Part shown: positions 6,751-50,929 of the stretch, one piece after another
How positions within the stretch are numbered: the stretch's first letter is position 1
How the letters are laid out: every line of letters begins with the position of its first letter
Assembly (NCBI GenBank): GCA_038087875.1
Contig: CM075990.1
Location: 744,001 to 808,000 of the forward strand
DNA length: 64,000 nt
Origin: Malacoraja senta
Taxonomy: Eukaryota
Direction of reading: 5' to 3'
Notes under the pieces: generated by a model
What the model saw: only the letters and a program-made list of their open reading frames with translations
Told to the model about the DNA's origin: nothing
Database searches by the model: none
Made by a program: the position numbers and the translations under genes

Positions 6751-8280
6751 CAACAAAACAACAACAACGGGTGGTTATAAACTGAATAAGGGGGGGGGTG
6801 TCAAATGGGATAGTCGAGGTCAGAGTTAAAGGGAAAGAGAGTAAAGGGATGGTTAATGACCCCAGAATTAATGGGAAAGGAAGCTCACAAAGGGATAGGA
6901 GAGTATGGCCAAGTGTAATAGGGATCGATGTGAAAGGTGAGCTGCGTAAGGAATTAAAAGTATTGTATATGAATGCGCGAAGTATAAGAAGTAAAGTAGA
7001 TGAGCTTGAGGCTCAGTTAGAGGTTGGTAGATATGACATTGTGGGGGTTACTGAGACGTGGCTGCAGGAGGATTGGGCCTGGGAACAATATTCAGGGTTA
7101 TATATCCTATAGAAAGGACAGGCAGGTGGGCAGAGGAGGGGGGGTAGCTCTGCTGGTGAGGGATGGAATTCAGTCCCTTGCGAGGGAAGACATAGGGACT
7201 GACGAGGTAGAGTCACTGTGGATTGAGTTGAGGAATTGTAAAGGCAAGAAGACACTAATTGGTGTTCTCTACAGACCCCCAAATAGTAGCCCGGATGTAG
7301 GGTGTAAGTTGCAGCAGGAGTTAAAACTGGCATGTAACAAAGGTAATGCCACTGTGGTGATGGGGGATTTCAATATGCAGGTAGACTGGGAAAAAAAGGT
7401 TGGTTCAGGACCCCAAGAAAGAGAGTTTGTAGAATGCCTCCGAGATGGATTCTTAGAGCAGCTTGTAATGGAGCCGACCAGAGAAAAGGCAATTCTGGAT
7501 TTAGTGTTGTCCAACGAACCAGATATGATGAGAGAACTCGAGGTAAAGGAACCGCTTGGAGGTAGTGATCATAATATGATTCGTTTTAATCTGCAATTTG
7601 AGAAGGAGAACGTTAAATCGGAAGTGTCAGTGATGCATGAAGGCATGAGAGGGGAGCTGGCCAAGGTAGACTGGAAAGGGATCCTAGCAGGAATGAGAGT
7701 GGAACAGCAATGGCAGGAATTTCTGGGCATAATCCGGAAGAAGCAGGATCATTTCATTCCAAAAAGGAAGAAAGATTCTGAGGGGAGTAGGAGGCAACCG
7801 TGGCTGACAAGAGAAGTTAGAGATAGAATAAAACTAAAAACAAAGATGTATAACACAGCAAAAAGTAGCCGGAAGCCAGAGGATTGGGAAACGTTCATAG
7901 GACAACAGAAGGAAACAAAACGGGCAATACGGGCTGAAAAGATGAAGTACGAAGGGAAGCTGGCCAGGAATATAAAGAAGAACAGTAAAAGCTTCTTTAG
8001 ATATGTTAAGGGAAAAAGAGTGGCAAAGTCAAATGTGGATCCCTTGAAGGCTGACACGGGTGAAATTTTACTTCGGAGTCACGTGAGTGACTACGTGAAG
8101 AGCCCGTCCAGCACGCATGCGTGACATTAGCGTTCACGCAGTGCAACAGCGACGACCGGGAGTACAGGCGCTCCCGCTACAAGTCGGTGGAAAATAAACA
8201 GCGGACCATCAGGTAAGTCTTACTCTGTGGTCGTAATCAGCAAGCTGTGCTCTGCTCTGTATTCCAGGGGAACTGGAAAA

Positions 8281-9500
8281 ATGAGTAACACGGCAAAGGA
8301 AGAAAACCGCCCCCCGTTCGACTCCAACAGAACGGGAGTGTTCCATCAGTGGGGGGCGAGAGGCGGCACCTGGACCGCACATGCTGCGGCACACCCTCAT
8401 CGAGACCGAGCCGAGCCCAGTCCTGCTAGCGCAGCCTGACCAACAGCAGCGGGCTGGAGGCAAATCAAGGCACAAAACATACCGGCCGGTTATGTCTCAC
8501 TCCGATGAGGGGGCTCTCCGCCTTAGAGCGGCAGAGCTAGCTGCCTGAGCCGCATGGAAAGGCTCATGGAGAAAATGCTCCAGCGAGACTTGCTTCGGGA
8601 GCTGGAGCAGTCTCGCCAAGGGAACTCAGGCACTCCCACATCAGTGCTCTACAATGCACTGGCCATCGCTTTCCCCTCAAGCGAGGGCAGCGTTGGCGAC
8701 CAGGGCTGGGCTGGTCAGGAACAGTGGTCATTGGCTGAAGATGTCGGGAGTACGCTTGGGGTACAGGATCAGGAAGAGCTGCTGGGTGTGGAGATTCGCT
8801 ACGTGGTTACACCACGAGCAGGGCGGCTGTTGCAGCCAAAACTGGCGGCCAGCATTAACCACCTGTCCCCCAAACCCCTACAAGACAGGTACTTAATGAG
8901 GCACTAGAGCTGGAAAACTGCAGTTCGCTCAATGTACCGGCTGTTAACAGCCAAATCTGGGGGGGGGGGGGGGGGTATGTGGGACAGAGTATCCGGAACC
9001 AGGAGCTAAAATCCTCAAGCTCCTGACGACAGGGATAACAGCCTATGCTCGTACCGTGGATGGGGTGGATATGACCACAAACCAGCAAGACACTCTGGCT
9101 CTGCTGTGCAACACCCAATATGAGATAAACAACCTCCGCAAGGAGAGAATAAGACCTGCCCTCAATCCCAGGTTTGCAGGACTGTGTAAAACACCGGCCT
9201 CAGAGCCGCAGATCCTGTTATTTGGAAGGGCAAGTGAAAGACCTGGAGGAGAGTCCAAAGCATTTGGCCTCATGAGGGCAGGCCCCGGAACGAACAGACC
9301 CACACACAAAACCAGACGGCAGTACCCCACCGCGTCCACCACTCAAGGTCAAATTTATGGAACTGGTGAAAGCTCGGGGTCCGCATACTATCCCCGAAAG
9401 CCTTTTTAGGCCAGGGCCCAGAGTGGACCCCATGGAAAATGCGCCACCCCCAATCAACGGTACATCCAGCAGTACTACGACGGATGAACAAACGGAAGAA
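8281..9500 (+). pseudogene. DIRS ORF1 (gag-like), disrupted
   Basis: ATG at 8281. Fragments MERLMEKMLQRD, NCSSLNVPAVNSQIW and EINNLRKERIRPALNPRFAGLCK are similar to the ORF1 fragments of the second DIRS (49170-50248). Confidence 0.7.
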
Positions 9501-9517
9501 GGAACACTACCATAACT

Positions 9518-11440
9518 ATGGAGGTAGGTGGGTCTGGTTCCTACCAGCATGTAAAAATGGGGGAACTGTACTAACATGGGGGAGATTACACCTGTTCATT
9601 GAAGCATGGAGGTGTCTCACAAATGATAGTTATATACTTAACAGTATTCGGGGATACAAAATAGAGTTCATTCAAGAAAACATGCCACCAGTTTAGCACG
9701 TACCCCAAAGGGTCTTTACCCTCTCAGTCAAAGAGAACTAGAGGCTCAAGCAGAACTGGTGAGGTTACTTACAAAGGGTGTCATTGAGAAATCCAAACAT
9801 GAACCTTTGGAATTTGTCTCAAATATATTTACCAAAAGCAAAAAAGATGGTGGATGTCGCATCATCATTGACTTAACCTCACTAAATACCTTTGTTAAGT
9901 ATGTACATTTCAAAATGGTAACATTTGTAACTGCTAAACAACCGATTTCCAAAGGATACTTTATGGTAAGCATTGATTTAAAAGATGCCTACTATTCAGT
10001 ACCCATTCACAAGGGTCATCGCAGATACCTGAAATTTACCTGGATGGGGCAACTACGGCAGTATAAAGCGTTGCCTAATGGGTTGACATCAGCCCTAGAC
10101 TATTTACCAAGATATTAAAACCAGCCTTGGCAACATTAACGAAACAAAGACATATTGTCATGGCATAACTTGATGATATCCTAATAGTAGGCAAAACCAT
10201 GGAGTTGGCTAAATCAGCTGTATTAGCTACCAAACAATTGTTTGAAACCCTGGGTTTTGTCATACATCCAGATAAATCTAAGTTGACGCCATCCACAACT
10301 ATGGACTATCTGGGATTCACAATTAACTCAATCCACATGTCTGTAACGTTGCCAAAAGGTAAAGCAGCAGAATTGGCACAGACGTGCAACAATTTAATGG
10401 TAAACAATCGACCAACCATCTGACAAGTGGCAAGAGTAATTGGCAAAATGGTAGCAGCATTTCCAGCTACACAATTTGGACCCCTGCACTATCAGCACCT
10501 ACAAAGGGCAAAAGTACAGGCGTTGAAACGACATGCAGGTCACTTTGACCGAACCATGAAACTACCCATTGAAGCAATATCAGAGTTACAATGGTGGATA
10601 ACACATTTGGCATAGTTCCAGCCCTATCATCATCAATAACCCAACGTTAACTATACAAACAGATGCCAGTGCTCAAGGCTGGGGAGCAACTAATACCATA
10701 TCCAGCACAGGTGGTAGATGGACTAACCTAGACTCATCTTTACTACAAACACTGGGCATAAATTATTTGGAAATGTTGGGTGCGTTTTATGGTTTAAAAG
10801 CATATTCTAGGAATATGCACAATTTGCATGTTCGTTTACAAATTGATAATATCACGGTGGTGGCCTATATTAACCATATGGGCGGAATAAAATCGATATC
10901 ATGTGACAATTGGGTCAACACAATCTGGTAATGGTGGGTCAATAGACATATTTGGCTATCAGCAACTTACCTACCAGGTAAGCTAAATACAGTGCCAGGT
11001 CACGCAAATTCAATGATAAACACCGAATGGATGTTAAATCCTAGAGCTTTTGCTAAAATTACAAACCAATATGGCACACCAGATATCGATCTCTTTGCAT
11101 CCAGACTAAATCACCACGTACCAATGTATGTCCCTTGGGAACCACACCCTGAGGCAGCAGCGATAGATGCATTCGCACTGAACTGGGGGACCTATTTCTT
11201 CTATGCTTTCCCCCCCTTCTGCCTTAATCTGTAGGGTACTACGCAAAATACAGATGGACTCTGCTTCAGGTATTTTGATAGTACCAACTGGCCTACACAG
11301 CCATGGTTCCCACTGGTCCTCGACATGGTCATCGAAACTCCTATGACCTTTCCCAGTAGCCCAGACCTATTGACGCACCCTGTATCAGGCATAAGTCATC
11401 CATGCCATGACAAAATTAACCTACTGGGTTGCAGATTATC
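9518..11440 (+). pseudogene. DIRS pol: RT, RNase H and adenine-methyltransferase-like domain, disrupted
   Basis: KKDGGCRIIIDL, IDLKDAY, LPNGL, .LDDIL, QTDAS..GWG, DN..VVAYINHMGG, DIDLFASRLN and YAFPPF in ORFs 9759..10118, 10199..10423 and 10992..11234 and the sequence between them. Confidence 0.9.
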
Positions 11441-12270
11441 AAAAGACCACTGCTGGGACTGGGATTGTCTGACAAGGACCATCAACATGATGACACCGTA
11501 TGTCCACCAGGAAACAATACCTATCGAGCATCAGGAAGTGGGAAAGATACTGCTCGACTACTGGGACAACGTACTCATCTGCAACCATAACCAATGTACT
11601 GGAGTACCTGGGGGGCCTTCACCAGAATGAAGGATTGAGCTACAGCGCCTTCAATACTGCCAGACGTGCGCTGTCAGCCTACTTAAAACAGGTGCCAGGA
11701 CAACAGGCCATAGGGTCTCACCCGCTGGTGATCAAACTCATGAGGAGTATCGTCAACTCCAACCCTCTTAGACCTAGGTATACACAAATCTGGGATGTCA
11801 GTGTGGTCCTGACATACCTAAGGGGATGGTCCCCAGCCAGGTCTCTCATCCTGGAAAAGCTAACCCTGAAAACGGTCATGCTGATGCCACTAGTCTCAGC
11901 ACAAAGAGTCCAGTCCCTCCACTTACTGCGACTGGACAACATGGTTATAACACCAGACCACATCAACACAACAAGAGATTCTCGAGGGAGAAAAAAGGGA
12001 AAAAAAAAAAAGAAAAAAAAAAAGAAGCCTTATGGGTCAGCCACAAGAAACCTCATGGTTGGGTGTCGAGCCAAACCATCTCGAGATGGCTCAAGCAGGT
12101 ACTGGGAGCTGCTGGAGTAGATACTGATGTATATACATCTCACTCCACCAGGGCAGCATCCAACATCGGCGGCTAAAAGAATGAACATGGAGAAAACGTT
12201 CCAAACGTTCTACCACAAGCCGCTAGCAGAACCTGTGTTATTTGCAGAAAGAGTTTTAAAATCTACAAAA
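11435..12270 (+). pseudogene. DIRS tyrosine recombinase, internally deleted
   Basis: STRKQY...W, RPRYTQIWDV..VL.YL, LTLKTVML..LVSAQRVQ, SQTISRWLKQVL and HSTRAA (ORFs 11500..12120 and 11826..12176). The middle is replaced by an A-rich tract near 11990-12025. Confidence 0.85.
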
Positions 12271-12446
12271 AATATATAATTTAAGCCCAGGGGAGCATTT
12301 TGTCTTTTGTTATTGTTTAATAGATACCATTATTGTTTACAAACAGATTATGGTTGATTACGATAACATACTTCCTCCCTTGAATGACTTCGGCAGCGAG
12401 TGAAGTATGAACTGTTACACGGTTTGAAATCACAGAGCTTTAAAAT

Positions 12447-12523
12447 CTTCACGTAGTCACTCACGTGACTCCGAAGTAAAATAGTAAGATTAAACGAGAA
12501 CTTACCAGTTTGAAGTTTGATCT
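12447..12523 (+). other. DIRS internal complementary region (ICR)
   Basis: CTTCACGTAGTCACTCACGTGACTCCGAAGTAAAAT is the reverse complement of 8065-8100. It is fused to AATAGTAAGATTAAACGAGAACTTACCAGTTTGAAGTTTGATCT, the reverse complement of 12698-12741. Confidence 0.95.
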
Positions 12524-13281
12524 CCGCTCCCACCCTCAATTATAGATCAACTGGTATCTTAGTTCTCCTTTTCTTTACTATGTTTATTTCAATTATTGTG
12601 TTTCCTGTGATTCCACACCGCTGCTTTGAAGAATGTCGCGCATGCGTGCTGGACGGGCTCTTCACGTAATCCCTCATTGTAACTCCTCATAAAATACAGA
12701 TCAAACTTCAAACTGGTAAGTTCTCGTTTAATCTTACTATTATTATGGGCAAGGAAATGGCAGAAGAGTTGAATAGGTACTTCGGAACTGTCTTCACTAA
12801 GGAAGACACAAACAATCTCCCAGATGTACTGGAGGACAGAGGATCTAAGGTGGTAGAGGAACTGAAAGAAATTTTAATTAGGCGAGAAATAGTATTGGCT
12901 AGGCTATTGGGACTGAAGGATGATAAATCCCCTGGGCCTGATGGTCTGCATCCCAGGGTCCTCAGGGAGGTGGCTCTAGAAATAGTGGATGCATTGGTGA
13001 TTATTTTCCAATGTTCAATAGATTCAGGATCAGTTCCTGTGGATTGGAGGATAGCTAATGTTATCCCACTTTTCAAGAAAGGAGCGAGAGAGAAAACGGG
13101 GAATTACAGACCAGTTAGCCTGACTTCGGTGGTGGGAAAGATGCTGGAGTCAATTATTAAAGAGGTAATAATGGGGCATTTGGATAGCAGTAAAAGGATT
13201 AGTCCAAGTCAACATGGATTTATGAAATGGAAATCATGCTTGACTGATCTTCTGGAATTTTTTGAGGATGTGACAAGTAAA

Positions 13282-24190: not shown

Positions 24191-24997
24191 CTGGAGCAGC
24201 AGCTCGATGACCTCCGTCTGGTCAGGGAGAGCGAGGAAGTCATTGAGAGGAGTTACAGGGAGGTGGTCACTCCAAGACCACAGGAGGCAGGCAAGTGGAT
24301 CACGGTTGGGAGAGGCAAGGGGCAGAGGCAGGGACTAGAGAGTACCCCGGTGGCTGTACACCTTGACAATAAGTACTCCTGTTTGAGCACTGTTGGGGGG
24401 GACAGCCTACCTGGGGGTAGCGACAGCGGCCGGGCCTCCGGTATAGAGACTGGCCCTGTTGCTCAGAAGGGTAAGGAAAAGAAGAGGAGGGCAATACTAA
24501 TAGGGGACTCTATAGTTAGGGGGTCAGACAAGCGATTCTGTGGACGCAGTCGGGAGACCCGGATGGTAGTTTGCCTCCCTGGTGCCAGGGTCTGTGATGT
24601 GTCTCAACGTGTCCAAGATATCCTGAAAGGGCAGGGAGAGGAGCCCGAGGTCGTGGTACATATAGGTACCAATGACATAGGTAAAAAAAGAGAAGAGGTC
24701 CTGAAAGGAGAATTTAGGGAGTTAGGAGGGGAGTTAAAGAGAAGGACAGCAAAGGTAACAATCTCGGGATTACTGCCTCTGCCACGCGACAGTGAGAGTA
24801 GGAATGGAGTGAGGTGGAGGATAAATGCGTGGCTGAAGGACTGGTGCAGAGGGCAGGGATTCAAATTTCTAGATCATTGGGACCTCTTTTGTGGAAGGTT
24901 CGACCTGTACAAAAAGGATGGGTTGCACTTGAACCTGAGGGGGACCGATATCCTGGTGGGGAGATCTGCAAAGTCTACTGGGGAGACTTTAAACTAG
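24191..24997 (+). CDS. CR1 ORF1 protein, C-terminal SGNH/GDSL esterase-like domain (N-terminus missing)
   Basis: ILIGDSIVRG, CLPGA, VVHIGTND and DGLHLN in ORF 24263..24997. The frame is open from the truncation point. Confidence 0.88.
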   Translation: MEQQLDDLRLVRESEEVIERSYREVVTPRPQEAGKWITVGRGKGQRQGLESTPVAVHLDNKYSCLSTVGGDSLPGGSDSGRASGIETGPVAQKGKEKKRRAILIGDSIVRGSDKRFCGRSRETRMVVCLPGARVCDVSQRVQDILKGQGEEPEVVVHIGTNDIGKKREEVLKGEFRELGGELKRRTAKVTISGLLPLPRDSESRNGVRWRINAWLKDWCRGQGFKFLDHWDLFCGRFDLYKKDGLHLNLRGTDILVGRSAKSTGETLN

Positions 24998-25145
24998 AAT
25001 GGTTGGGGGGAGGGACTCAAATAGAGAATGCTATTAGACAGTGTGTGAGGCAAGAGGCAGAGAAGGAAAGCACTCAGACCCAACATGTAGGGGGGAAAGA
25101 AGAAAACAATAATAAACAGAGAATAAGAGGTGGTGGGGTTCTTAA

Positions 25146-32809: not shown

Positions 32810-34374
<1,565 letters not shown>

Positions 34375-37640: not shown

Positions 37641-38003
37641 GAGAGAGAAGCAGATGTCAAAAGTTAAGAGAGACAGAAGAGTGTTTAATAGTAAGATTAA
37701 ATGAGAACTTACCAGTTTGAAGTTTGATCTTTATTTTATGAGGAGTTACGATGAGGGATTATGTGAAGAAGGCCGTCAGCACACATGCGCGTCAATCTTC
37801 AAAGCAGCGGTGTGAAATCACAGATAACAGTTGTTGAACTAACATAGTAAGATTAGAGATGACTAGAACTACCAGATGATCTTTATGATACGAGGATTGG
37901 GAGCAGAGGGCACGTAATCGCTCATCTGGACCCGTTGCGCTATAAGCATGACTACCTTAAGAGTGAGATTAGGCAGAGACAGAGATGAAGCTGCAGCCCA
38001 CTG

Positions 38004-41000
38004 AATAGAATAGAATACGTTTATTGTCATTGCACAATACTGTGCAACGAAATTCCATTGCATCTCCTCCGGTTAAAAAATACAAACACGACAACCATTG
38101 ACACATATGTACACTTATTAGTAAAAATAATAAATAAGTATTTAAAAATAATTTTAAAAGAATGTTGCATTTCTTGGAATTACATTTTGCTTCCCCAGTG
38201 TTCTCTGTTGGAATTAAGTTCTTTTATCGCACATGGGTAGAAACTATTTTTTAGTGCGAGCCTTCAGAGACCCGAATCGCCTCCCAGAGGGTAGCAGAGT
38301 GAAAAGGTGGTTGGCAGGGTGGATGTGTCCTGCTTGATGTTTATGGCCCGGCGCAAGCATCGGGCCCTATATATATATCATCCAAGGAGGGCAGTTGAGC
38401 GTTTGTGATGCTCTGTGCAGTTTTTATAGCTCTCTGCAGTGCCCTCCTCTCAGCCACAGTGCAGCTAGCAAACCACACCAGGATGCCATAGGAGAGGATA
38501 CTTTCCACGGCGCATTGGTAGAAGGACAGCAGCAGCGGCTGTGAGACGTTTGCTCTCCGCAGAGACCTCAGGAAATACAGCCGCTGCTGTGACTTCTTCA
38601 CGAGAGTGACGGTGTTCATTTGCCATTTGAGGTCCTGGGAGATGTTTATTCCCAGGAATTTAAAGCCAGTGACTCTCTCCACCATGTCTCCTTTGATGTA
38701 TAGAGGAGCAGGTTCCTCTCTCCTCTTCCTCCTGAAGTCAACGACCAGTTCTTTTGTCTTTGATGGGTTGAGTACCAGGTTGTTTTTGGTACACCAGACA
38801 GTCAGTTTTTGGACTTCATCTCTGTAGGCAGACTCGTCGTTGTTGTTTATCAGTCCCACCGCAGTCGTGTCGTCCGCAAACTTGATGATCCTGTTTGTAC
38901 TGTGTGTTGGTGTGCAGTCATAAGTGTATATTGTAATACCTCAACAGTTGTATTGGATGAAGCAATGCAGATAAAAGCTGAATCAGCAAACTTAATATCA
39001 TATTTGTATAATATTATTTTAAATGTAGAAATACCATCTACGGAAGGTATTAGAAGAGACTGGGAACAAGAATTAGCTATTAAAATCTCAAAGGAAAGGT
39101 GGAATGAACATTTATTAAACGTGCATAAATGTTCGATTAATGTAAGACACACTTTAATACAATTTAAAATTTTACATAGATTATATTATTCTAAAACTAA
39201 AATCAATAAAAATTTCCCAAATGTATCATCAATTTGTGGTAAATGTCAATCTCAACAAGCTACTATAGCGCACTCATTTGTTTTCTGTACAAAAATTCAA
39301 AAATTTTGGATTTAAATTTTTGAAATCTTTACAAAATTATTTAAAATTAAACTGATACCCAAAGCAGAATGGATTATCTTCGGAACAACGGAAGATAGTC
39401 CAGAACTAAATGTGTTGCAAAAGAAATTAATAGACTATGGGATAATAACTGGAAAAAAGTTAATCCTAAAATTCTGGAAAAACGCTCCAATACCAACTAT
39501 AAACATGTGGATTTCAAATATGTTCGAAACATTACACCTAGAAGAGATAAGACTCCTCCTGGCAGGTAAACCAGATCACTTCCACCTGACGTGGTCTGCA
39601 TTTATAGAATTATTACAAGTATAGGGTGCAAAAGTACTAAAAAAATACTAAAAAAACTGAGGTCAGGTAAGGGGGGATGAAAGCTGGAGAGTTGGTATGT
39701 CCCATTTGCGTGATGCTTACAAAAAAGTATTTGTTTTTCTCTTTTCCCTCTTTCTCTTTTTTCTTCTTTGTTAGGGTCTATTTCTTAACTCTTTCCTTTT
39801 GTTTTTAATTTCTTTTTTTATAGGATCTTTGTCTTTTGTTTTTGTTTTTTGTTGTCACGTTTTTTACACTTTCACTTTTTTCCTTCACTTTCTTCTTTCT
39901 CTCAATCTCATCCTTTCCCTTTATTAGTGTAGAAAATAAATGGAGTACATTAATTGTAATAAGATATATGTGATGAGTACTAGTGTAATTGGTTGTAATG
40001 TAATGTACTTCTAATAAATACAAATTTAAAAAAATTAAAATTTAAAAAATATATAAAAAAATAAGTGTATATTGTGTACAAGATGGGACTCAGCACACAA
40101 CCTTGTGGCGCTCCTGTGCTGAGCGTCAGGACTGGGGAGTAATTGGACCCCATCCTGACAGTCTGTGGGTGGTCTGTTAAGAAGTCCTTTATCCATCTGC
40201 ATGTGTTTGCATTAACACCCAGATCAGACAGTTTGTCCACCATTCTGCTGGGGATGATGGTATTAAATGCAGAACTAAAGTCTACAAATAACATGCTCAC
40301 ATATGAGCCAGGGCGCTCCAGATGTGTCAGTGCGGAATGTAGAGCTATGTTGATGGCATCTTCCGTTGACCTATTTGCTCTATTTGCAAACTGGATGGGA
40401 GTGAGGACTTAATGTGGGCCAGGACCAGCCGTTCAAAACACTTCATCACAGTTGAAGTGAGAGCAACAGGTCTGTAGTCATTCAAGCTGGTAATGGATGT
40501 TTTTTTGGGTACAGGCACGATAGTAGCAGTCTTGAAGCATTTAGGGACAGTGCACGTTGACAGAGAGAGGTTAAAGATGTCGCTAAGAACCTCCACTAAC
40601 TGGTCTGCAGAGTCCCGCAATACTCTTCCTGGGATGCCATCTGGGCCAGCAGCCTTCCTGGGGTTGACCCTGTGGAGTACTCTTCTGACATCCTCCGGGG
40701 TGAGAAAGAGTGATAGATGGTCAGACTGGCCGAGGTGAGGGAGAGAGGAGGCTTTGTATCCATCCTTAATGTTGCTGTATACGTGATCCAGTGTATTTTG
40801 ACCTCTCGTCGGACACGCGACATGCTGGTGGAATTTAGGGAGGACAGTTTTTAGATTAGCCTAGTTGAAGTCTCCAGCCACGATGAAAATCCCATCAGGG
40901 TGCGCAGTCTGTAGTTTGTTGATTGATGCTAGCAGGGTGTTCAGTGCTAGCTTGACGTTAGCGCTTGGTGGAATATAAACAGCCAGAATAACGACAGCTG

Positions 41001-41689
41001 TGAACTCCCGCGGCAGATAGAAGGGTCGGCATTTCAATGTGATAAACTCTATGTCTGGTGAACAATGTCTCTCGACAACGTTTACATTTGTGCACCATTT
41101 GTCATAAGAGTAAATACATAGCCCCCCTCCTCTGCTCTTACCGGAGTCACTGCTCCTGTCGGCCCGGTGTGCTGTGCGACCTACCAGACTAATGGCCACA
41201 CCCGGGATCCCAGCGTGAAGCCAGGTCTCAGTTACCACCATAATCGAGCAGGTTTGCACAGGTTTGCACAGTTGTATTTTCTTCATTGATCAGCTCCAGC
41301 TCGTCCATCTTGTTGCTGAGCGATCGGGCGTTCGTCAAAAAAATGCTGGGTAGCGCCGGTCTGTAAGGAGCTTCCTTTAGCCTAGCGTGAATGCCGGCTC
41401 GACAACCGCGCTTCTGCCGCCTCCGTCTGCGCCGCCTCCCGCACCGTCCGTTCGATATGGTGATCCACTCGGACTCCGCTGGGCGTGTGATTTCTGGCGG
41501 GATATAGTCGTTGTGGGAGCTTCTCACGAACTCTAGTTCGCTACACTGCGTCCCAATCCTTAAATACATCCTGCCGGTTGTATGTCGAGTCGCAGTCCAC
41601 AGACAAACGGACAAAACAGACAAAAACAACAACATCCACACGGGGGAGAGCAAAGCCGCTGCATTCAGGTGCGCCGCCATTTTTGCCAA
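38004..41689 (-). mobile_element. Full-length Rex1/Babar-type LINE (APE and RT, frameshifted) inserted in the DIRS YR
   Basis: 5' [63 protein letters not shown] and KFADD. (TTCTA)n tail. TSD CCACTG at 37998-38003 and 41690-41695. Confidence 0.9.
38935..40060 (+). mobile_element. 5'-truncated L1-clade LINE (ORF2 C-terminus and 3' UTR) nested in the Rex1 element
   Basis: QFKILHRLY...C.KC....TIAH.F..C..I..FW zinc motif, T-rich UTR, AATAAA and A-tail. 15-bp TSD ATAAGTGTATATTGT at 38920-38934 and 40061-40075. Confidence 0.92.
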
Positions 41690-43088
41690 CCACTGGCGAA
41701 GCAGCGTGAGTAGCAGCGTGAGTACCACGCTCATATCCCATATCTGTGAATATCGGGGCCTAGGGGGAGTAGAGTTAAAATGCCCTTCATAAATCTTGTA
41801 ATTAAGGGGTGAGATCCGACAGTGTGGTTTCCTGACCGCAGCCATAAGTAAGATGATAATGCGCTCCTAGCATTATTTATGGCGCTATAACTGAATTTCT
41901 GATCGTAGAATAGTGTAGATAGGAACTTCAAAACATCCGTAATGGAAGCCGTGTCATACGAAATTATCGAGAGAGAGCAGTACATCTCCCATTTCCTTAT
42001 ATGAGCGATGTACTGTTTCTGGGTACTCTTCCTCCAGGCTGCAGTGATCACATCTACCGTACGATCTGAAAGTCCGAGCCCCAGGAACGGTCTCCTCACA
42101 ATCTGCAAACCAATAAATTGATTCGGTCATGCAGTGGATGGTTTTCCCCTGTCACAGGATGAACCAGCAGATTTCTGCTTTTGGGGACAGCCATAAAAGG
42201 CTGTGTAATCATACCTAGGACGAGTGGGAACCAATGCTGTGTAGGCCAGTCTGGTACTCCCAATATGCCAGAGACGGAGTCTTGCTTGATCTTGGCCAAG
42301 CACCGACTGATGAGGCAAAATGGGGGAAAGGCATACAAGAACTTTCCACCCCAGTGTAGCGAGAATGCATCTACTGCCACTGCCCCTGGGTCTGGTTCCC
42401 ATGAAACGTAATTTGGTAACTGGTGATTTAGTCTAGATGCAAACAAATCGATCTCCGGTACGCCCTACCAAGCGACAATGTCGTTAAACATTTCATGATT
42501 CAACATCCATTCTTTGTTGTCATTGAATTCCGTGACCTGGTGTCCGCCACCATGTTATATCTACCTGGTAAGTACATAGCTGAAACCCAGATGTTTCTCG
42601 TAATACACCAGTATACAAGTGGTAAATTCACATGATGCATATTGCTACAATAAGCCTTTAGCCCATGGAGTGCTCCCAACAACTCTAAGTAGTTAATACC
42701 ATGTGACGGAAGAATTGATTATTCCTGCATATTCCATCTGCCACCGCAGCTTGAGAAGGTGTTGGTAGCACCCCATCCTAGAGCACTAGCATCGGTTTGT
42801 AGGATAACTGATGGTGTATCGATTAAAATTGTACTGGAGCAATGCCGAATATTGGTCACCCACCATTGTAACTCAGCAATGGCTTCAGCTGGCAACCGCA
42901 TAGGTCTACCGAAGTGACCTTTATGAAGTTTGATTGCCTGCTCCTTTGCACGTTGTAAGTTTTGGTAGTGCAAAGGCCCGAACTGAGCAGCTGGGAAATC
43001 AGCCACTAATTTGCCAATTATACTAGCCACATGTCTAATAGAAGGTTGGTCCTTAACAATGAGATTGTTGCAGGCTTCAATTAATTCT

Positions 43089-46000
43089 ATTGGTACATAA
43101 GACATACTCACGTATAGACTACTTTCTGCTGGATACAAAATTAATCCCCCAAACATCTAATGCAATATACCACACAAACCCAATTTCAGACCATTCTCCA
43201 CTAACTTTCTTTTTGAACCTGGAAGGATTGTCTAAGAATAAATCGTTTTGGAGATTTAATTCTCAAATTCTAAAAGATCCACAAGCGAGTATATATTTAA
43301 AAGAACAAATGGAGGTCTTTTTTCAAATAAATGATACTCCAGATATATCGCCTACTGTACTATGGGAATCTTTTAAAGCATACATTAGGGGTATTATAAT
43401 TTCATATCAAGCTTTTCAAAATAAAAAGAATAAGAATGAACAAAGACAGTTAGAAGAACTTATTAGACAAATGGATATAGATAATGCTAAAGATCCATCA
43501 ATAGATAAACATAATAAAATAATAATTTTGAAATTTAAATTAAATAAATTATTATCTGCCAAACTTATAAGACTTTTTCAAATTACAAAACAAGAGCACT
43601 TTGAATTTGGGGATAAACCGCATAAACTTTTGGCTCGCCAGCTAAAAAAAACGAGAAAAGGGACATACTATACCAAAGATCAAATCAGATAAAGGGGAAT
43701 TATTAACAACACCGAAGGATATTAATAATCGATTTGCGCAATTTTATGAGAATTTGTATACATCTAAAACGACAATTGATTCCAATAATATCACAAAGTT
43801 CTTGGATACCTGTAATCTTCCAAAGTTAGAGCTGAAGGAACAAGAGGAACTGGGTGCACAAATCTCAATTAAGGAATTAGAAGATACAATAAACTCACTA
43901 AAGAATGGAAAAACACCAGGCCCTGACGGATTTACTAATGAATTTTATAAAAACTTTTATGATAAAATAATACCAAGATTACAAAAAATGTACCAATATG
44001 CTTTTAAAAAACGAATACTACCTGATACATTAGCGGAATCAACGATTACATTAATACCTAAGAAAAATAAAGACTTAGAAGAACCTGGTTCATATAGAGC
44101 AATAGCATTGTTAAACACAGATCAAAAAATATTAGCGAAAACATTAGCTAGAAGATTAAGTAAATACATTAGTAAATTAATAAACCCAGATCAGACGGGG
44201 TTTATCCCTAAGAGATACTCATCTAACAATATGAGACGTCTACTCAACATAATGCACTCACACAAATCTGAAGATCAAGAATTATCAATTATTTCGCTGG
44301 ATGCTGAAAAAGCATTTGATCAAGTAGAATGGAATTATATGGACAAAGTATTACAAAAATTTCAACTGGGGGAGAATTTTATTCTATGGATCAAGTTACT
44401 ATATAACAAACCTACAGCTAGAATACTAACTAATAACATATTATCCTCGAAATTCCAACTATCAAGGGGAAATAGACAAGGATGCTCATTATCACCACAG
44501 CTGTTTGCTCTCATTATTGAACCGCTAGCAGAAAAAATTAGAATACACCCTGATATCCATGGATATAATACTAAAGATTCATATAATAAAATATCTTTAT
44601 ACGCGGATGATATATTACTGTACATTACAAAACCTCAAATCACTATACCAAATATATTAAATTTAATTGAAGACTTTGGATCTTTTTCTGGATATAGAAT
44701 AAATTGGAATAAAAGTGAAATTATGTCAATAAAACCGAAAGATTCAACACATCTTTTAAAATTCCCTTTTAAAATAGCTACAGAAAAAATTAAATATTTG
44801 GGAATCGAAATTACCAGAACATATCAAGGTATGTTTAGCGCAAAATTTTGACCCCCCTACTTAATAAATTAAACACACTAATTAAATTCTGGAAAACGCT
44901 CCCGATGTCTTTAATAGGCCGAATAAACGCAATAAAAATGATCTTTTTACCACAAATTTTATACCTATTTCAATCAATTCCTATATACTTACCAAAGAAG
45001 TTTTTTAAAAAACTCGACTCAGATATCACTAATTTTATATGGGACTATAAATCACATAGAATACAAAAAACTCATCTGAATAAACCTAAAGTATTAGGGG
45101 GTTTAGCACTACCTAATTTTATTTATTATTATTGGTCAGTAAATATTAAAAATATGATTCACTGATGGATAACTCCGCCCAGCAAGTGGATTGGATTGTA
45201 ATGGAGAAGAGGATTGCTCCTCTAGAAACATTGGAGCGATCCTCCTTTCTCCAATGAAATTGAATAACATAAATTATAAAAAGAACCCAATTATTCATAG
45301 TACAATCCGAATTTGGAAACAAATAAAACAAAATTCAAATTAAGAAATTTATCACTTTTATTACCTATAGTCAATAACCCTTCATTTAATCCTTCTATTA
45401 TAGATAAAGCTTATACACAATGGGATAGACTAGGAATTAAAATGCTTGGTGACTTGTATGAAACTGAAAATTACTTTCATTTCAACAATTACAAATAAAA
45501 TATAAACTCGGAAATAATCAATATTTTAAATATTTTCAAATATGCGACTATTTGAAAAATCATACAAAAGATCATTATAATAACCCAGTAGATGTATTGG
45601 ACGAGGCAATGCAGATAAAGCGGAATCAGCAAACTTAATATCATATTTGTATAATATTATCTTAAATGTACAAATACCATCTACGGAGGGTATCAGAAGA
45701 GACTGGGAACAAGAGTTAGCTATTAAAATTTCAAAGGAAAGTTGGGAATGAATACTTATTAAACGTGCATAAATGCTCGATTAATGTAAGACACACTTTA
45801 ATACAATTAAAAATTTTACATAGATTATATTATTCGAAAACTAAAATTCATAAAATTTTCCCAAATGTATCATCTATTTGCGATAAATGTCAATCCCAAG
45901 AAGCTACTATAGCGCACTCATTCGTTTTCTGTACAAAAATTCAAAAATTTTGGAATTAAATTTTTGAAATCTTTACAAAGTTATTTAAAACAAGACTGAT

Positions 46001-46303
46001 ACCCAAAGCAGAATGGATTATCTTCGGTATAACGGAAGATGGTCCAGAACTAAATGTGTTTCAAAAGAAACTAATGGACTATGGGTTAATAACTGGAAAA
46101 AAGCTCATTCTAAAATTTTGGAAGAAGGCTCCAATACCAACTATAAATATGTGGATTTCAAATATGTTTGAAACATTACACCTAGAAGAGATAAGACTCC
46201 TCCTAGCAGGTAAACCAGATCACTTCCACCTGACGTGGTCTGCATTTATAGAATTATTACAAACATAGTACTTAATTATTACAAAAAGTACTTTAAAAAA
46301 AAA
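43089..46303 (+). mobile_element. L1-clade LINE ORF2 (end of APE, RT, zinc motif), frameshifted, no 3' UTR
   Basis: YSRIDYFL, ISDHSP, KTPGPDGF, SLDAEKAFD, RG.RQGC.LSP and LYADD (ORFs 43090..43692, 43754..44851, 44848..45165). C-terminus very similar to the 38935 copy. Confidence 0.93.
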
Positions 46304-46304
46304 G

Positions 46305-49165
46305 TACTCAATCTTCTAAATTCTAGCGAGTACAAGCCGAGTCTATCCAGTCTTTCTTCATATGAAAGTCCTGACATCCCAGGAATCAATCTGGTGAACC
46401 TTCTCTGTACTCCCTCCATGGCAAGAATGTCTTTCCTCAGATTTGGAGACCAAAACTGTACGCAATACTCCAGGTTTGGTCTCACCAAGACCCTGTACAA
46501 CTGCAGTAGAACCTCCCTGCTCCTATACTCAAATCCTTTTGCTATGAATGCTAACATACCATTCGCTTTCTTCACTGCCTGCTGCACCTGCATGCCTACT
46601 TTCAATCACTGGTGTACCATGACACCCAGGTCTCGTTGCATCTCCCGTTTTCCTAATCGGCCACCATTTAGATAATAGTCTACTTTCCAGTTTTTGCCAC
46701 CAAAGTGGATAACCTCACATTTATCCACATTATACTGCATCTGCCATGCATTTGCCCACTCACCCAGCCTATCCAAGTCACCTTGCAGCCTCCTAGCATC
46801 CTCCTCACAACTAACACTGCCCCCCCCAACTTTGTGTCATCCGCAAACTTGGAGATGTTGCATTCAATTCGCTCGTCCAAATCATTAATATATATTGTAA
46901 ATAGCTGGGGTCCCAGCACTGAGCCTTGCGGTACCCCACTAGTCACTGCCTGCCATTCTGAAAAGGAACCGTTTACTCCTACTCTTTGCTTCCTGTTTGC
47001 CAGCCAGTTCTCTATCCACATCAATACTGAACCCCCAATACCGTGTGCTTTAAGTTTGTATACTAATCTCTTAAGTGGGACCTTGTCGAAAGCCTTCTGA
47101 AAGTCCAGATATAACACATCCACTGGTTCTCCCTTATCCACTCTACTAGTTACATCCTCGAAAAATTCTATAAGATTCGTCAGACATGATTTACCTTTCG
47201 TAAATCCATGCTGACTTTCTCCAATGATTTCACCACTTTCCAAATGTGCTGCTATCCCATCTTTAATAACTGACTCTAGCAGTTTACCCACTACCGATGT
47301 TAGACTAACTGGTACGTAATTCACCGTTTTATCTCTCCCTCCTTTTTTAAAAAGGGGGGTTACATTAGCTACCCTCCAATCCTCAGGAACTACTCCAGAA
47401 TCTAAGGAGTTTTGAAAAATTATCACTAATGCATCCACTATTTCTGGGGCTACTTCCTTAAGTACTCTGGAATGCAGCCTATCTGGCCCTGGGGATTTAT
47501 CGGCCTTTAATCCATTCAATTTACCTAACACCACTTCCCGGCTAACCTGGATTTCACTCAGTTCCTCTATCTCATTTGACTATTTCCGGCAGATTATTTA
47601 TGTCTTCCTCAGTGAAGACAGAACCAAAGTAGTTATTCAATTGGTCTGCCATGTCCTTGTTCCCCATGATCAATTCACCTGTTTCTGACTGCAAGGAACC
47701 TACATTTGTTTTAACTAATCTCTTTCTCTTCACATATCTATAAAAACTTTTGCAGTCAGTTTTTATGTTCCCTGCCAGTTTTCTTTCATAATCTATTTTC
47801 CATTTCCTAATTAAGCCCTTTGTCCTCCTCTGCTGGACTCTGAATTTCTCCCAGTCCTCTGGTAGGCTGCTTTTTCTGGCTAAATTGTACGCTTCATCTT
47901 TTGTTTTGATACTATCCCTGATTTCCCTTGTTATCCACGGATGCACGGATGCCTGATTTATTCTTTTGCCAAAGTGGGATGAACAATTTTTGTAGTTCAT
48001 CCATGCAGTCTTTAAATGCCTTCCATTGCATATCCACCGTCAACCCTTTAAGAATCAATTGCCAGTCAATCTTGGCCAATTCACATTTCATACCCTCAAA
48101 GTTACCTTTCTTTAAGTTCAGAACCCTTGTTTCTGAATTAACAATGTCACTCTCCATCCTAATGAAGAACTCAACCATATTATGGTCACTCTTGCCCAAG
48201 GGGCCACGCACAACAAGACTGCTAACTAACCCTTCCTCATTACTCAATACCCAGTCTAGAATAGCCTGCTCTCTCGTTGGTTCCTCTACATGTTGGTTTA
48301 GAAAACTATCCCCCATACATTCCAAAAAATCCTCTTCCTCAGCACCCCTGCCAATTTGATTCACCCAATCTATATTTAGATTGAAGTCACCCATTATAAC
48401 AGTTTTACCTTTGTTGCACGCATTTCTAATTTCCTGTTTGATGCCATCTCCAACTCCACTACTACTGTTAGGTGGCCTGTACAAAACACCCACTAGCGTT
48501 TTCTGCCCCTTAGTGTTTCGTAGCTCTACCCATATCGATTCCACATCCTCCAAGCTAATATCCTTCCTTTCCATTGCGTTAATCTCCTCTCTAATCAGCA
48601 ACGCTACCCCACCTGCTTTTCCTTTCTGTCTATCCCTCCTGAATATTGAATATCCCTGGATGTTCAGCTCCCAGCCTTGGTCACCCTGGAGCCATGTCTC
48701 CGTGATCCCAACTATATCATAATCATTAATATCTATCTGCACATTCAACTCATCTACCTTATTATGAATGCTCCTTGCATTGAGACACAAAGCCTTCAGG
48801 CTTGTTTTTACAACGCTCTTACCCCTTATACAATTATGTTGAAAAGTGGCCCTTTTTGATTTTTGCCCAGGATTTGTCTGCCTGCCACATTTACTTTTCA
48901 CCTTGTTACCTATTGCTTCTACCCTCATTTTACACCCCTCTGTCTCTCTGCTCACACATTTAAGAAACCCACCACCTCTTATTCTCTGTTTATTATTTTT
49001 TTCTTCTTTCCCCCCTACCTGTTGGGTCTGAGTGCTTCCCTTCTCTGCCTCCTGCCTCACACACCGTCTACAAGCTTCCTCTATTTGAGTCCCTCCCCCC
49101 AACCGTTCTAGTTTAAAGTCTCCCCTGTAGCCTTTGCAAATCTCCCTGCGAGGATATTGGTCCCC
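46305..49165 (-). mobile_element. CR1 LINE (end of ORF1 to RT), same subfamily as 24191-28210, 3' end missing
   Basis: ORFs 47912..49102, 47572..48000, 46680..47534 and 46279..46605 are nearly identical to the 988-aa ORF2 but frameshifted. Confidence 0.95.
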
Positions 49166-50929
49166 CTCGATCTGGCGATCCGTCTGGTGTTGAGAGGAGC
49201 ATAGGGGTGCTGCCGCCGGAAAGATGAAGTCTTGGAAGATGTTGGGACCTTCATAAGCCCGACCGCTTAAGCCCCATCATCCAGCTCCCTGACCTGCTTT
49301 GGCAGATCTTCCCCGAACAAGAGGTTTGGTGGTTGGATGTTCCCAGCCTTGCATAATGCTGCAAATTTGGGGTTCAGAGCAGGACGGATGGCATTCTTTC
49401 GTAGGCAATTTATCTCAAAATGTGCATTGCACATTAATGCCATGACTGCTGAACATCCGAGAGGGGCCCCCCATCCACCGACCTGGCAAAGGCCGTGATG
49501 CCTGAGGCGAGCAATCTTAATATTTTTTGTAATTTTACCTCCTAGGCTCTGACGCCCCCTCCAATGTAACCCCAGATGGAATGATTTACCGCCGGGACAT
49601 TCAATGAGGCACAGTTTGCAGGGGTATGGTACTTGGTGGTGGTTTCCTCCATGGCCTGATCTTGGAGCTGGTGAGAGGCCAGGTAATTAATGCTCATGGC
49701 TAAATCCTCTCCCAGCGGTTCCCCTGTTAGGGACGGTATAGCAAATTTGGATGCCATTGGGGGCACTTCCGATTCTTGCCCTTCATGCCTAGAAGCATGC
49801 TCCCCAGCTGTGCCTCCGAACTCTGTGTAGAACTGACCTTGTATGCTCCCCTCCTCAGAGAGGGAGACATTGTGCGGCCCTGAGACAGGTGCTGCTGCCG
49901 CAGGCTCTCTAGAATACCCGGGCTCAGATAGCTCCCTCCTTTGGAGCATATCACTTTCGAGCAACCTCTCCATCAGGTGCTCCATGTGGGTCAGTCGCCC
50001 ATAGACGCTGCCCATTGAAGGAGGTGAACCCTCCTGGCCCGACTCGTCCGAGACCACGGGCCTGACAGACTTCTTGGTGGCTTTCCTCCCCAACGGAGTA
50101 GCCAAGGTGCTTTCTATCGGCATCAAGTCTGTAGCTGCTGGCTCCACTGCCAGCGACCGGAAGGCGAAATCGGTGGCCGCCCGCTAGCCGCAGTCCCGCG
50201 GTCTTCAGTAGTCGGTTTCACCGCGGCCCGCCTCTTCACCTTAGACATGGTCTCCGCAAAGTTCGAATACTTTCTGTAACAGAGTAAACGAACCGGGAGC
50301 AACGACCTCAGAGAGAGTATAAGCACTTACCTGAGGGTTTTAAACTTACCGCTGGAAGGAGCGACGCGCCCGCCAGGCAGTCGTTGCGCAATGCGTTAGA
50401 CGTAATGACGCGCATGCGTGCTGACGGCCTTCTTCACGTAGTCACTCACGTGACTCCGAAGTAAAATTGTCATGTAGACAGGGATTAGAACAATGAAATT
50501 CTTACTTTGTGTTGAAGATTATTACTATGTGTTGAATGTAGATGTGCTGTGTGTGTTGTGTGATTGTGCAGTGTGTCTGTGAGATGCGTGTGTTGGTTGA
50601 TTGTGCAGTATGCGTGCTGCTTATGTTTGTTGATTGTGTCTCTTTTTTTTTTTTTTTTTTTTTTAGAAGCTACTGTAATGCGCCCTTTTAAATTGCCCCT
50701 CAGGGACGAATAAAGTGCTTTGTATTGTATTGTATTGTATTGTATTTGCTGCAGCTTTACATGTGCATTAAACGCAATGCCATTTAAACATAGAATAAGT
50801 TAGCAGTTACTCTAGATGAATCAGACCATGATCATGCACATGTACGTAGAACAACCATATTAGTCCAAAGTCCATACTAGTTTGGTGCTGGCAGCATTAG
50901 TGGATGCTAATCTTCTCTGCAATCTTTAC

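Follow-up and report, generated by a model that had tools for sequence, protein, structure and literature searches.

Retroviruses and gypsy-type elements have a donor in the leader, a -1 frameshift for Gag-Pol and a spliced env. The DIRS1-like superfamily is described (PMC3266345) as having inverted terminal repeats, a right extension, an internal complementary region (ICR) with a 3-bp junction and NTT ends, with no target duplication, and as encoding gag, reverse transcriptase (RT)-RNase H-methyltransferase (MT) and a recombinase. That paper does not contain the word intron, and it records a 'long open reading frame (ORF) overlap' in half of 28 elements with no mechanism stated in the passages concerned. 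The plant Ty1/Copia element EVD is, in the passages on its splicing (PMC5580714), a retrotransposon that keeps an intron and in which alternative splicing sets the protein ratio. The only expression proposal found for frames of the DIRS order is frameshifting, made for Ngaro and quoted in a passage of PMC13003380. Two decayed DIRS1-like retrotransposons, DIRS-1 on the plus strand and DIRS-2 on the minus strand, are present in a stretch of 64,000 nucleotides of Malacoraja senta (GCA_038087875.1, contig CM075990.1, positions 744,001 to 808,000), the whole of which is referred to here as the window.

DIRS1-like elements of this kind probably make their recombinase by splicing out the whole RT gene (pol). 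The overall explanation, that both copies in the window are DIRS1-like and use the host spliceosome through a leader intron and a pol intron, is given a probability of about 0.6. A donor upstream of gag, a U-rich slippery site and a last gene reached by splicing out pol would be shared with retroviruses and gypsy-type elements, but env is absent here and splicing would serve the recombinase, the conserved donor is found past the gag stop rather than in the leader, and a fusion with Gag would result. Splicing of EVD gives a short gag-only RNA (PMC5580714, same passages), whereas here it would take out pol and attach the recombinase, in addition to a frameshift. In contrast to the description of the superfamily in the passages of PMC3266345, the ORF overlap here follows the position of a splice acceptor. 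No report of native splicing in DIRS1-like elements was found in the open-access literature, a scope outside which lie the reviews of Poulter and colleagues, Repbase and supplements; the accessible passages of PMC7192593, PMC3266345, PMC9210276, PMC3950715, PMC3783388, PMC4157794, PMC3537659, PMC9341512 and bioRxiv 2026.05.21.726589 held only marker introns, unrelated uses of the word, or nothing.

Donor and acceptor at the two ends of pol

Related loci (95) were collected from metagenome and genome contigs (the best 80 of 438, and 15 of 15) and grouped into 69 families, and a tree of 62 of these families and six proteins was made by a quick search without bootstrap, the seven families left out having too little pol. 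Splice sites were scored in bits using matrices built from textbook frequencies.

A donor overlooked in the original prediction, D2, stands at the start of pol in DIRS-1 with its first intron base at 9524. The closest full pol to that of the window, the intact P0001 (72 % identity), begins MEVG. Within 260 nt before the pol anchor, 51 of 58 related families have a best donor of at least 7 bits, which is in phase 0 of the pol frame in 45, phase 1 in five and phase 2 in one. Donors of at least 9 bits occur in the last 130 nt in 50 % of families, compared with 0-10 % in the 37 other sense-strand intervals. The distance from the gag stop downstream to D2 is 2-54 nt in 36 of 38 families, and D2 is conserved far better across relatives than the leader intron. 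Its phase 0, the one that joins the recombinase frame, matches that of the acceptor at the far end of pol, A3. In DIRS-2 the gag/pol junction, where D2 would stand, is replaced by nested pieces of a long interspersed nuclear element (LINE). From 0 to 780 nt into pol, no donor of at least 9 bits was found on the sense strand in six successive intervals, and such donors occurred on the antisense strand in 3-6 % of families; cryptic donors appear to be disfavoured within the intron that would hold pol.

Relative to pol, the recombinase is read in the -1 frame in all 55 clear cases (seven were unclear and seven had no anchor). An in-phase acceptor of at least 6.5 bits is present in 47 of 55 families, whereas the two other phases taken together reach 27 of 55. 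The acceptor in most families is the AG of the Ser codon in the FPPFS motif of pol, and this Ser is encoded by AGY in 49 of 50. Third bases of the FPPF Pro codons, which are silent sites, are pyrimidines in 76 of 94 cases where the AG follows, in 15 of 28 where it does not and in 405 of 800 elsewhere. Upstream, the recombinase frame extends without a stop as far as FPPF in 39 of 42 families with the AG and in 4 of 12 others, and in 12 families it opens exactly at the TAG of the acceptor. Most families lacking the AG, which are scattered over several parts of the tree, have another in-phase acceptor in its stead (weak in L092, none in L093). TGCAG at the end of pol is used by one clade (SH-aLRT 100 in the quick tree) comprising L001, L003, L008, L024 and P0001/P0004, the latter being the closest proteins to the window, and it is in phase and at the same place as the TTGCAG that the original prediction had correctly located at 11434 and 42103. 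A3 is weak in DIRS-1 (5.0 bits) and scores 8.1 bits in DIRS-2. TCAG/G at 'LSG' in pol was also considered as an acceptor and was rejected, the site being TCC in many families and out of phase. It is very likely that D2 and A3 are working splice sites.

The original prediction held that these elements carry splice signals, which stands, and offered the leader donor as a partner of A3 for recombinase expression, which is not supported. Downstream of the terminal repeat the DIRS leaders contain no ATG, and in DIRS-2 the frame read from A3 has its first Met at codon 40, beyond the conserved W of a W-R-x-x-T motif at codon 23. The direct joint between leader donor and A3 was dropped because a start codon is missing.

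Pol is -1 relative to gag in 36 of 38 families, a slippery heptamer (X XXY YYZ in the gag frame, within the -1 overlap; scored without a shuffle control) is present in 35 of 38, and an ATG in the pol frame before D2 is found in 8 of 38. A -1 frameshift upstream of D2 would therefore yield Gag-Pol from unspliced RNA and Gag-recombinase from spliced RNA. The heptamer is degenerate in the window copy, copies vary in length at the U-rich tract 9401..9414 in mapped contigs, and the predicted fold of 9395-9470, in a single decayed copy, is no better than that of shuffles (z 0.23).

Gag and pol share one frame in the L005 clade. Two donors 5 nt apart are found in four of its five loci (L005, L012, L025 and L033), compared with 2 of 52 loci outside the clade, and the phase-1 donor would end gag within 1-2 codons in all five, compared with within three codons in 17 of 42 others; the five loci are kin, and L048 is probably a broken copy in this clade. 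The G-E-V motif was not found in eight other single-frame gag-pol proteins or models, and the tandem donors are therefore confined to the L005 clade.

Gag and recombinase occur together without RT in 3 of 151 proteins, all of them RefSeq models. One of these, P0111 (XP_072015819.1), has a Gag ending in KGE fused to the recombinase at the FPPFS acceptor, a joint predicted from L005; the other two are P0141 (XP_046546323.1) and P0140 (XP_071502116.1). A gag-end piece is also joined to the FPPFS acceptor in P0201 (XP_022110667.1, RefSeq isoform X1) and in P0224 (Logan; two contigs, the longest 1781 nt). The P0224 contigs cannot hold pol beside the 455-aa frame and therefore represent spliced RNA or a precisely deleted copy. 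In P0114, P0119, P0123 and similar proteins, a single open frame of ~1300 aa runs through gag, a frame that overlaps the whole of pol, and the recombinase, and this group points to Gag-recombinase fusions as natural products. The odds lean modestly towards the recombinase being produced as a frameshifted Gag fusion.

The leader segment in both copies

The DIRS leaders each have a consensus GT donor and a pyrimidine-rich AG acceptor enclosing 55 or 57 nt, and the positions of donors, acceptors and ATGs in the original prediction were exact (Table 1). The leader donor of DIRS-1 (D1) is the highest-scoring donor of that element at 12.9 bits, and the leader acceptors score 8.3 and 9.0 bits. The observation was confirmed, and donor and acceptor together outscore 300 of 300 dinucleotide shuffles in each copy (p = 0.003). 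The leaders had been described as otherwise diverged, but they are less so: the left terminal repeats of DIRS-1 and DIRS-2 are 89 % alike over 83 nt, and CTCTG.GGTCGT is common to the intron interior of both. Counting both strands, the window has CAGGTAAGT at two places, one in either DIRS leader. With a shared interior and similar leaders, the two segments are therefore homologous and are not two independent observations.

A hairpin is predicted over the leader donor (p = 0.048 in DIRS-1 and p = 0.014 in DIRS-2, with the donor fixed and the flanks shuffled, in a test devised after the fold had been seen), and in the predicted fold of both copies the intron interior pairs with bases before the donor. 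Such a hairpin is not general, with p <= 0.05 in 4 of 50 D2 donors and 2 of 7 invertebrate leader donors; among the latter with a hairpin, only L020 has the donor covered as in the window.

An intron-like pair at p <= 0.05 was found in 5 of 23 mapped invertebrate leaders (L008, L010, L020, L042 and L067; binomial p = 0.005), the 23 being those with a mapped left end and usable length. The intron lengths are 64-67 nt in four of the five positive families and CTAAC is present in three; L010, L020 and L042 are close kin in the tree. It is fairly likely that the leader segment is excised at least sometimes.

Architecture and surroundings of the two elements

The features of both elements are listed in Table 1.

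Table 1 Coordinates of the features of DIRS-1 and DIRS-2 in the window
Feature	Position	Strand	Details
Leader intron candidate of DIRS-1, 55 nt (donor D1, acceptor A1)	8213..8267	+	donor CAG/GTAAGT at 8213; acceptor CTCTGTATTCCAG ending at 8267; ATG at 8281; splice scores, shuffles
Leader intron candidate of DIRS-2, 57 nt	50274..50330	-	donor at 50330; acceptor at 50274; ATG at 50248; splice scores, shuffles, shared interior motif
Donor D2, ATG GAG/GTAGGT	9518..9529	+	first intron base 9524; 9.3 bits; phase 0 in pol frame
Predicted pol intron, 1911 nt	9524..11434	+	RT, RNase H, methyltransferase-like part; broken in DIRS-1
Acceptor A3 of DIRS-1, TTGCAG/A	11421..11435	+	phase 0 in recombinase frame; last intron base 11434
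Acceptor A3 of DIRS-2	42102..42116	-	last intron base 42103
U-rich tract at gag/pol overlap	9401..9414	+	place of the -1 slippery site in relatives; AG 9414 acceptor-like, 8.3 bits
DIRS-1	8066..12741	+	full-length, decayed, DIRS1-like, within LINE; self-matches of ends and ICR, Pfam matches, stops/frameshifts
Left inverted terminal repeat of DIRS-1	8066..8128	+	86 % inverted match to 12632-12695
Gag region of DIRS-1	8281..9515	+	interrupted by stops and frameshifts
Tyrosine recombinase region of DIRS-1	11435..12280	+	frameshifted, partial deletion
ICR of DIRS-1	12446..12523	+	complement of 5' end joined to complement of 3' end
Right terminal repeat and right extension of DIRS-1	12632..12741	+	contains donor-like CTG/GTAAGT at 12716
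DIRS-2	37686..50467	-	left end 50467, gag to ~49170, pol/recombinase piece 43100-41720, right end 37885-37686

DIRS-1 has inverted terminal repeats with a right extension to 12741, ends in TTT...ATT (NTT type) without a target-site duplication, and lies inside a LINE whose halves flank it, with the LINE endonuclease to the left and the LINE RT to the right. The left repeat is the probable promoter, and its first 37 nt are complementary to ICR 12446-12482. The ICR halves, 12446-12482 and 12480-12523, match the element ends 100 % each with a 3-bp overlap; the ICR was not found in DIRS-2. The right repeat differs from the left mainly where the left end matches the ICR 100 %, a pattern that copying of the left end from the ICR would produce. 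The RT/RNase H frame is followed by an overlapping tyrosine-recombinase frame, and the Pfam matches (RVT_1, E 3e-05; Phage_int_SAM_4, E 3e-05 and 7e-06) are below the curated cut-offs because the copies are broken. The TAA at 9513-9515 is, from its relatives, the likely gag stop of DIRS-1. DIRS-2 is split by the nested LINE pieces, and its pol DNA is 68-69 % like that of DIRS-1.

LINE copies at 24937-27811 (+) and 46307-49168 (-) are 91-96 % alike and in opposite orientation; the first carries a 988-codon endonuclease-RT frame and the second is nested in DIRS-2. A GT-rich microsatellite of ~220 units of 4 nt occupies 33380-34257 and accounts for six long open frames there. Donor-like GGTAAGT is found in the window at 12713-12721 (+), in the ICR copy at 12505 (-) and at 37712 (-), and, in 22 of 23 related families, 19-25 nt in from the 3' end, often in a palindrome (ACTTAC..GTAAGT); it may reflect U1 binding, an antisense transcript through the ICR, or a recombinase site. 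Fifteen related DIRS loci (L081-L095) come from bacterial metagenome-assembled genomes and are probably mis-binned animal DNA. Viral contigs gave no relatives by protein search or terminal-repeat pattern.

Proposed expression programme and its alternatives

The splice signals, the phase and conservation of each, and acceptor turnover are observed, and from them we infer a programme in which either intron would be excised in this organism. The 55-57-nt segment would be an optional intron of the 5' untranslated region, whose removal would give a gag-led mRNA; it would otherwise be kept in the full-length RNA that is reverse-transcribed, and DNA copies would retain it because that RNA is the template. 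The hairpin over D1 may restrict use of the leader donor. Unspliced RNA would give Gag, and also Gag-Pol where ribosomes shift by -1 shortly before gag ends. Splicing from 9524 to 11434 would remove pol, after which the same frameshift would give Gag-recombinase.

Several results weigh against the use of both introns and against the fusion. The families are related, so that counts across them are not independent, and the 49:1 bias to AGY is partly historical lock-in, as other Ser columns are locked 64:0. Pol is joined to the recombinase by other donors in 10 of 151 proteins and in 13 Mytilus models, and the RefSeq models behind the joints may be ab initio. Gag frames of the joined proteins were assigned by a composition score that was clear for P0224, P0201 and P0111 and had margins of 2-4 bits for P0141 and P0140; counts of G/R/K-compatible codons did not discriminate the frame of P0224 and P0201. 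The gag pieces of P0201 and P0224 are best read in the +1 frame, not -1, and are therefore evidence for use of the acceptor and not for a Gag-recombinase fusion, the phase of P0224 suiting a gag-terminating donor. Four runs of contigs, which may derive from RNA or DNA, were mapped on 8060-11760 of DIRS-1, and none of the joints 8212>8268, 9523>11435 and 8212>11435 is among those listed (15 of 25); contig 25 of run X4 crosses the leader unspliced, and run X1 resembles genomic DNA, with GATC-bearing joints. The mapped contigs neither support nor refute splicing.

The leader adds further such points. No significant intron is present in 18 of the 23 mapped invertebrate leaders or in any of the 14 without a mapped left end (0/14), and the leader intron is therefore recurrent but optional. 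Five of the six loci nearest the window family show no significant intron, and in L008 it is marginal (p = 0.043) with a weak donor. No CTRAY or YTRAY branch point lies within 45 nt of the acceptor in either DIRS leader. Vertebrate branch points are degenerate, and the missing motif thus weighs little. At 55-57 nt the segment is shorter than the 65-nt threshold for human introns given in the relevant passages of PMC4463651, and the same passages report 15 validated human introns below that threshold and splicing of introns of 37-65 nt.

The short length and the absence of a branch-point motif would also suit a leader site that binds the U1 small nuclear ribonucleoprotein and is seldom or never excised, aiding transcription or blocking early polyadenylation, with an incidental acceptor-like tract. 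The predicted hairpin over the donor, the donor-like motif with no known partner that 22 of 23 families carry near the 3' terminus and the blocking of early termination by U1 in EVD (a passage of PMC5580714) point the same way. This explanation is nevertheless unlikely, as the two copies and four invertebrate families, of which three have CTAAC, all place a pyrimidine-rich AG at a near-constant distance from the donor, and human introns of such length are spliced.

Less likely again is that D1 acts as a major donor of the retroviral type, joined to A1 for gag and to 9409-9414 for pol, with pol starting from the ATG before D2 and with D2>A3, as a second splice, supplying a short Met-Glu start to the recombinase. 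The window family does have its own ATG before D2, which is a further point against the preferred reading; that ATG GAG abuts D2, in keeping with the start of P0001, AG 9414 is the second-ranked acceptor of DIRS-1 at 8.3 bits, and an acceptor of at least 7 bits precedes D2 in 15 of 38 families. Slippery sites are however far commoner than pol-frame ATGs (35 against 8 of the 38 families), some of them are A-rich (A AAA AAC) and impossible as a pyrimidine tract, the leader donor is missing from most families, and leaders have no ATG beyond the repeat.

Very improbable, finally, is an absence of splicing, in which the recombinase would be reached by a pol/recombinase frameshift, as a review quoted in a passage of PMC13003380 proposes for the Ngaro recombinase, or from an internal ATG (a usable one lies in frame between acceptor and conserved W in 25 of 45 families, which also counts against the preferred reading), and the motifs would be by-products of protein and terminal-repeat constraints: the FPPFS tract is indeed protein-coding and the joints listed include no RNA joint for the window family, but the silent-site pyrimidine bias is linked to the AG, a stop codon lies at the acceptor itself in 12 families, in-phase substitutes occur where the AG is lost, and the P0224 contigs are too short for pol.

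The preferred reading, splicing through a leader intron and a pol intron, can be extended to most of the clade, from marine invertebrates to this genome, as a tentative proposal with slightly less than even odds. Three proteins would be made from one promoter by a -1 frameshift coupled to alternative splicing, with pol as an intron, the recombinase fused to Gag and the 'long ORF overlap' as no more than the coding stretch that runs from the acceptor to where pol ends. The single-frame sub-clade would swap the frameshift for two donors 5 nt apart, giving Gag or Gag-recombinase, and a structured leader donor would gate the tiny intron. The leader acceptor would explain how DIRS gag was captured twice as a mammalian alternative exon; an acceptor has been inferred for the element that colonised TMPO and ZNF451, in the passages of PMC4495291 that treat it, where the LAP2alpha exons of TMPO and ZNF451 derive from LAP2alpha-type gag, whereas the gag pieces of the window match no Pfam family.

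The joints predicted are 8212>8268 and 9523>11435, with equivalents in ~50 families. If the programme is true, reverse transcription must favour unspliced RNA, and gene predictors mis-join DIRS elements in invertebrate annotations. A spliced-out pol would answer how DIRS elements come to express their recombinase.
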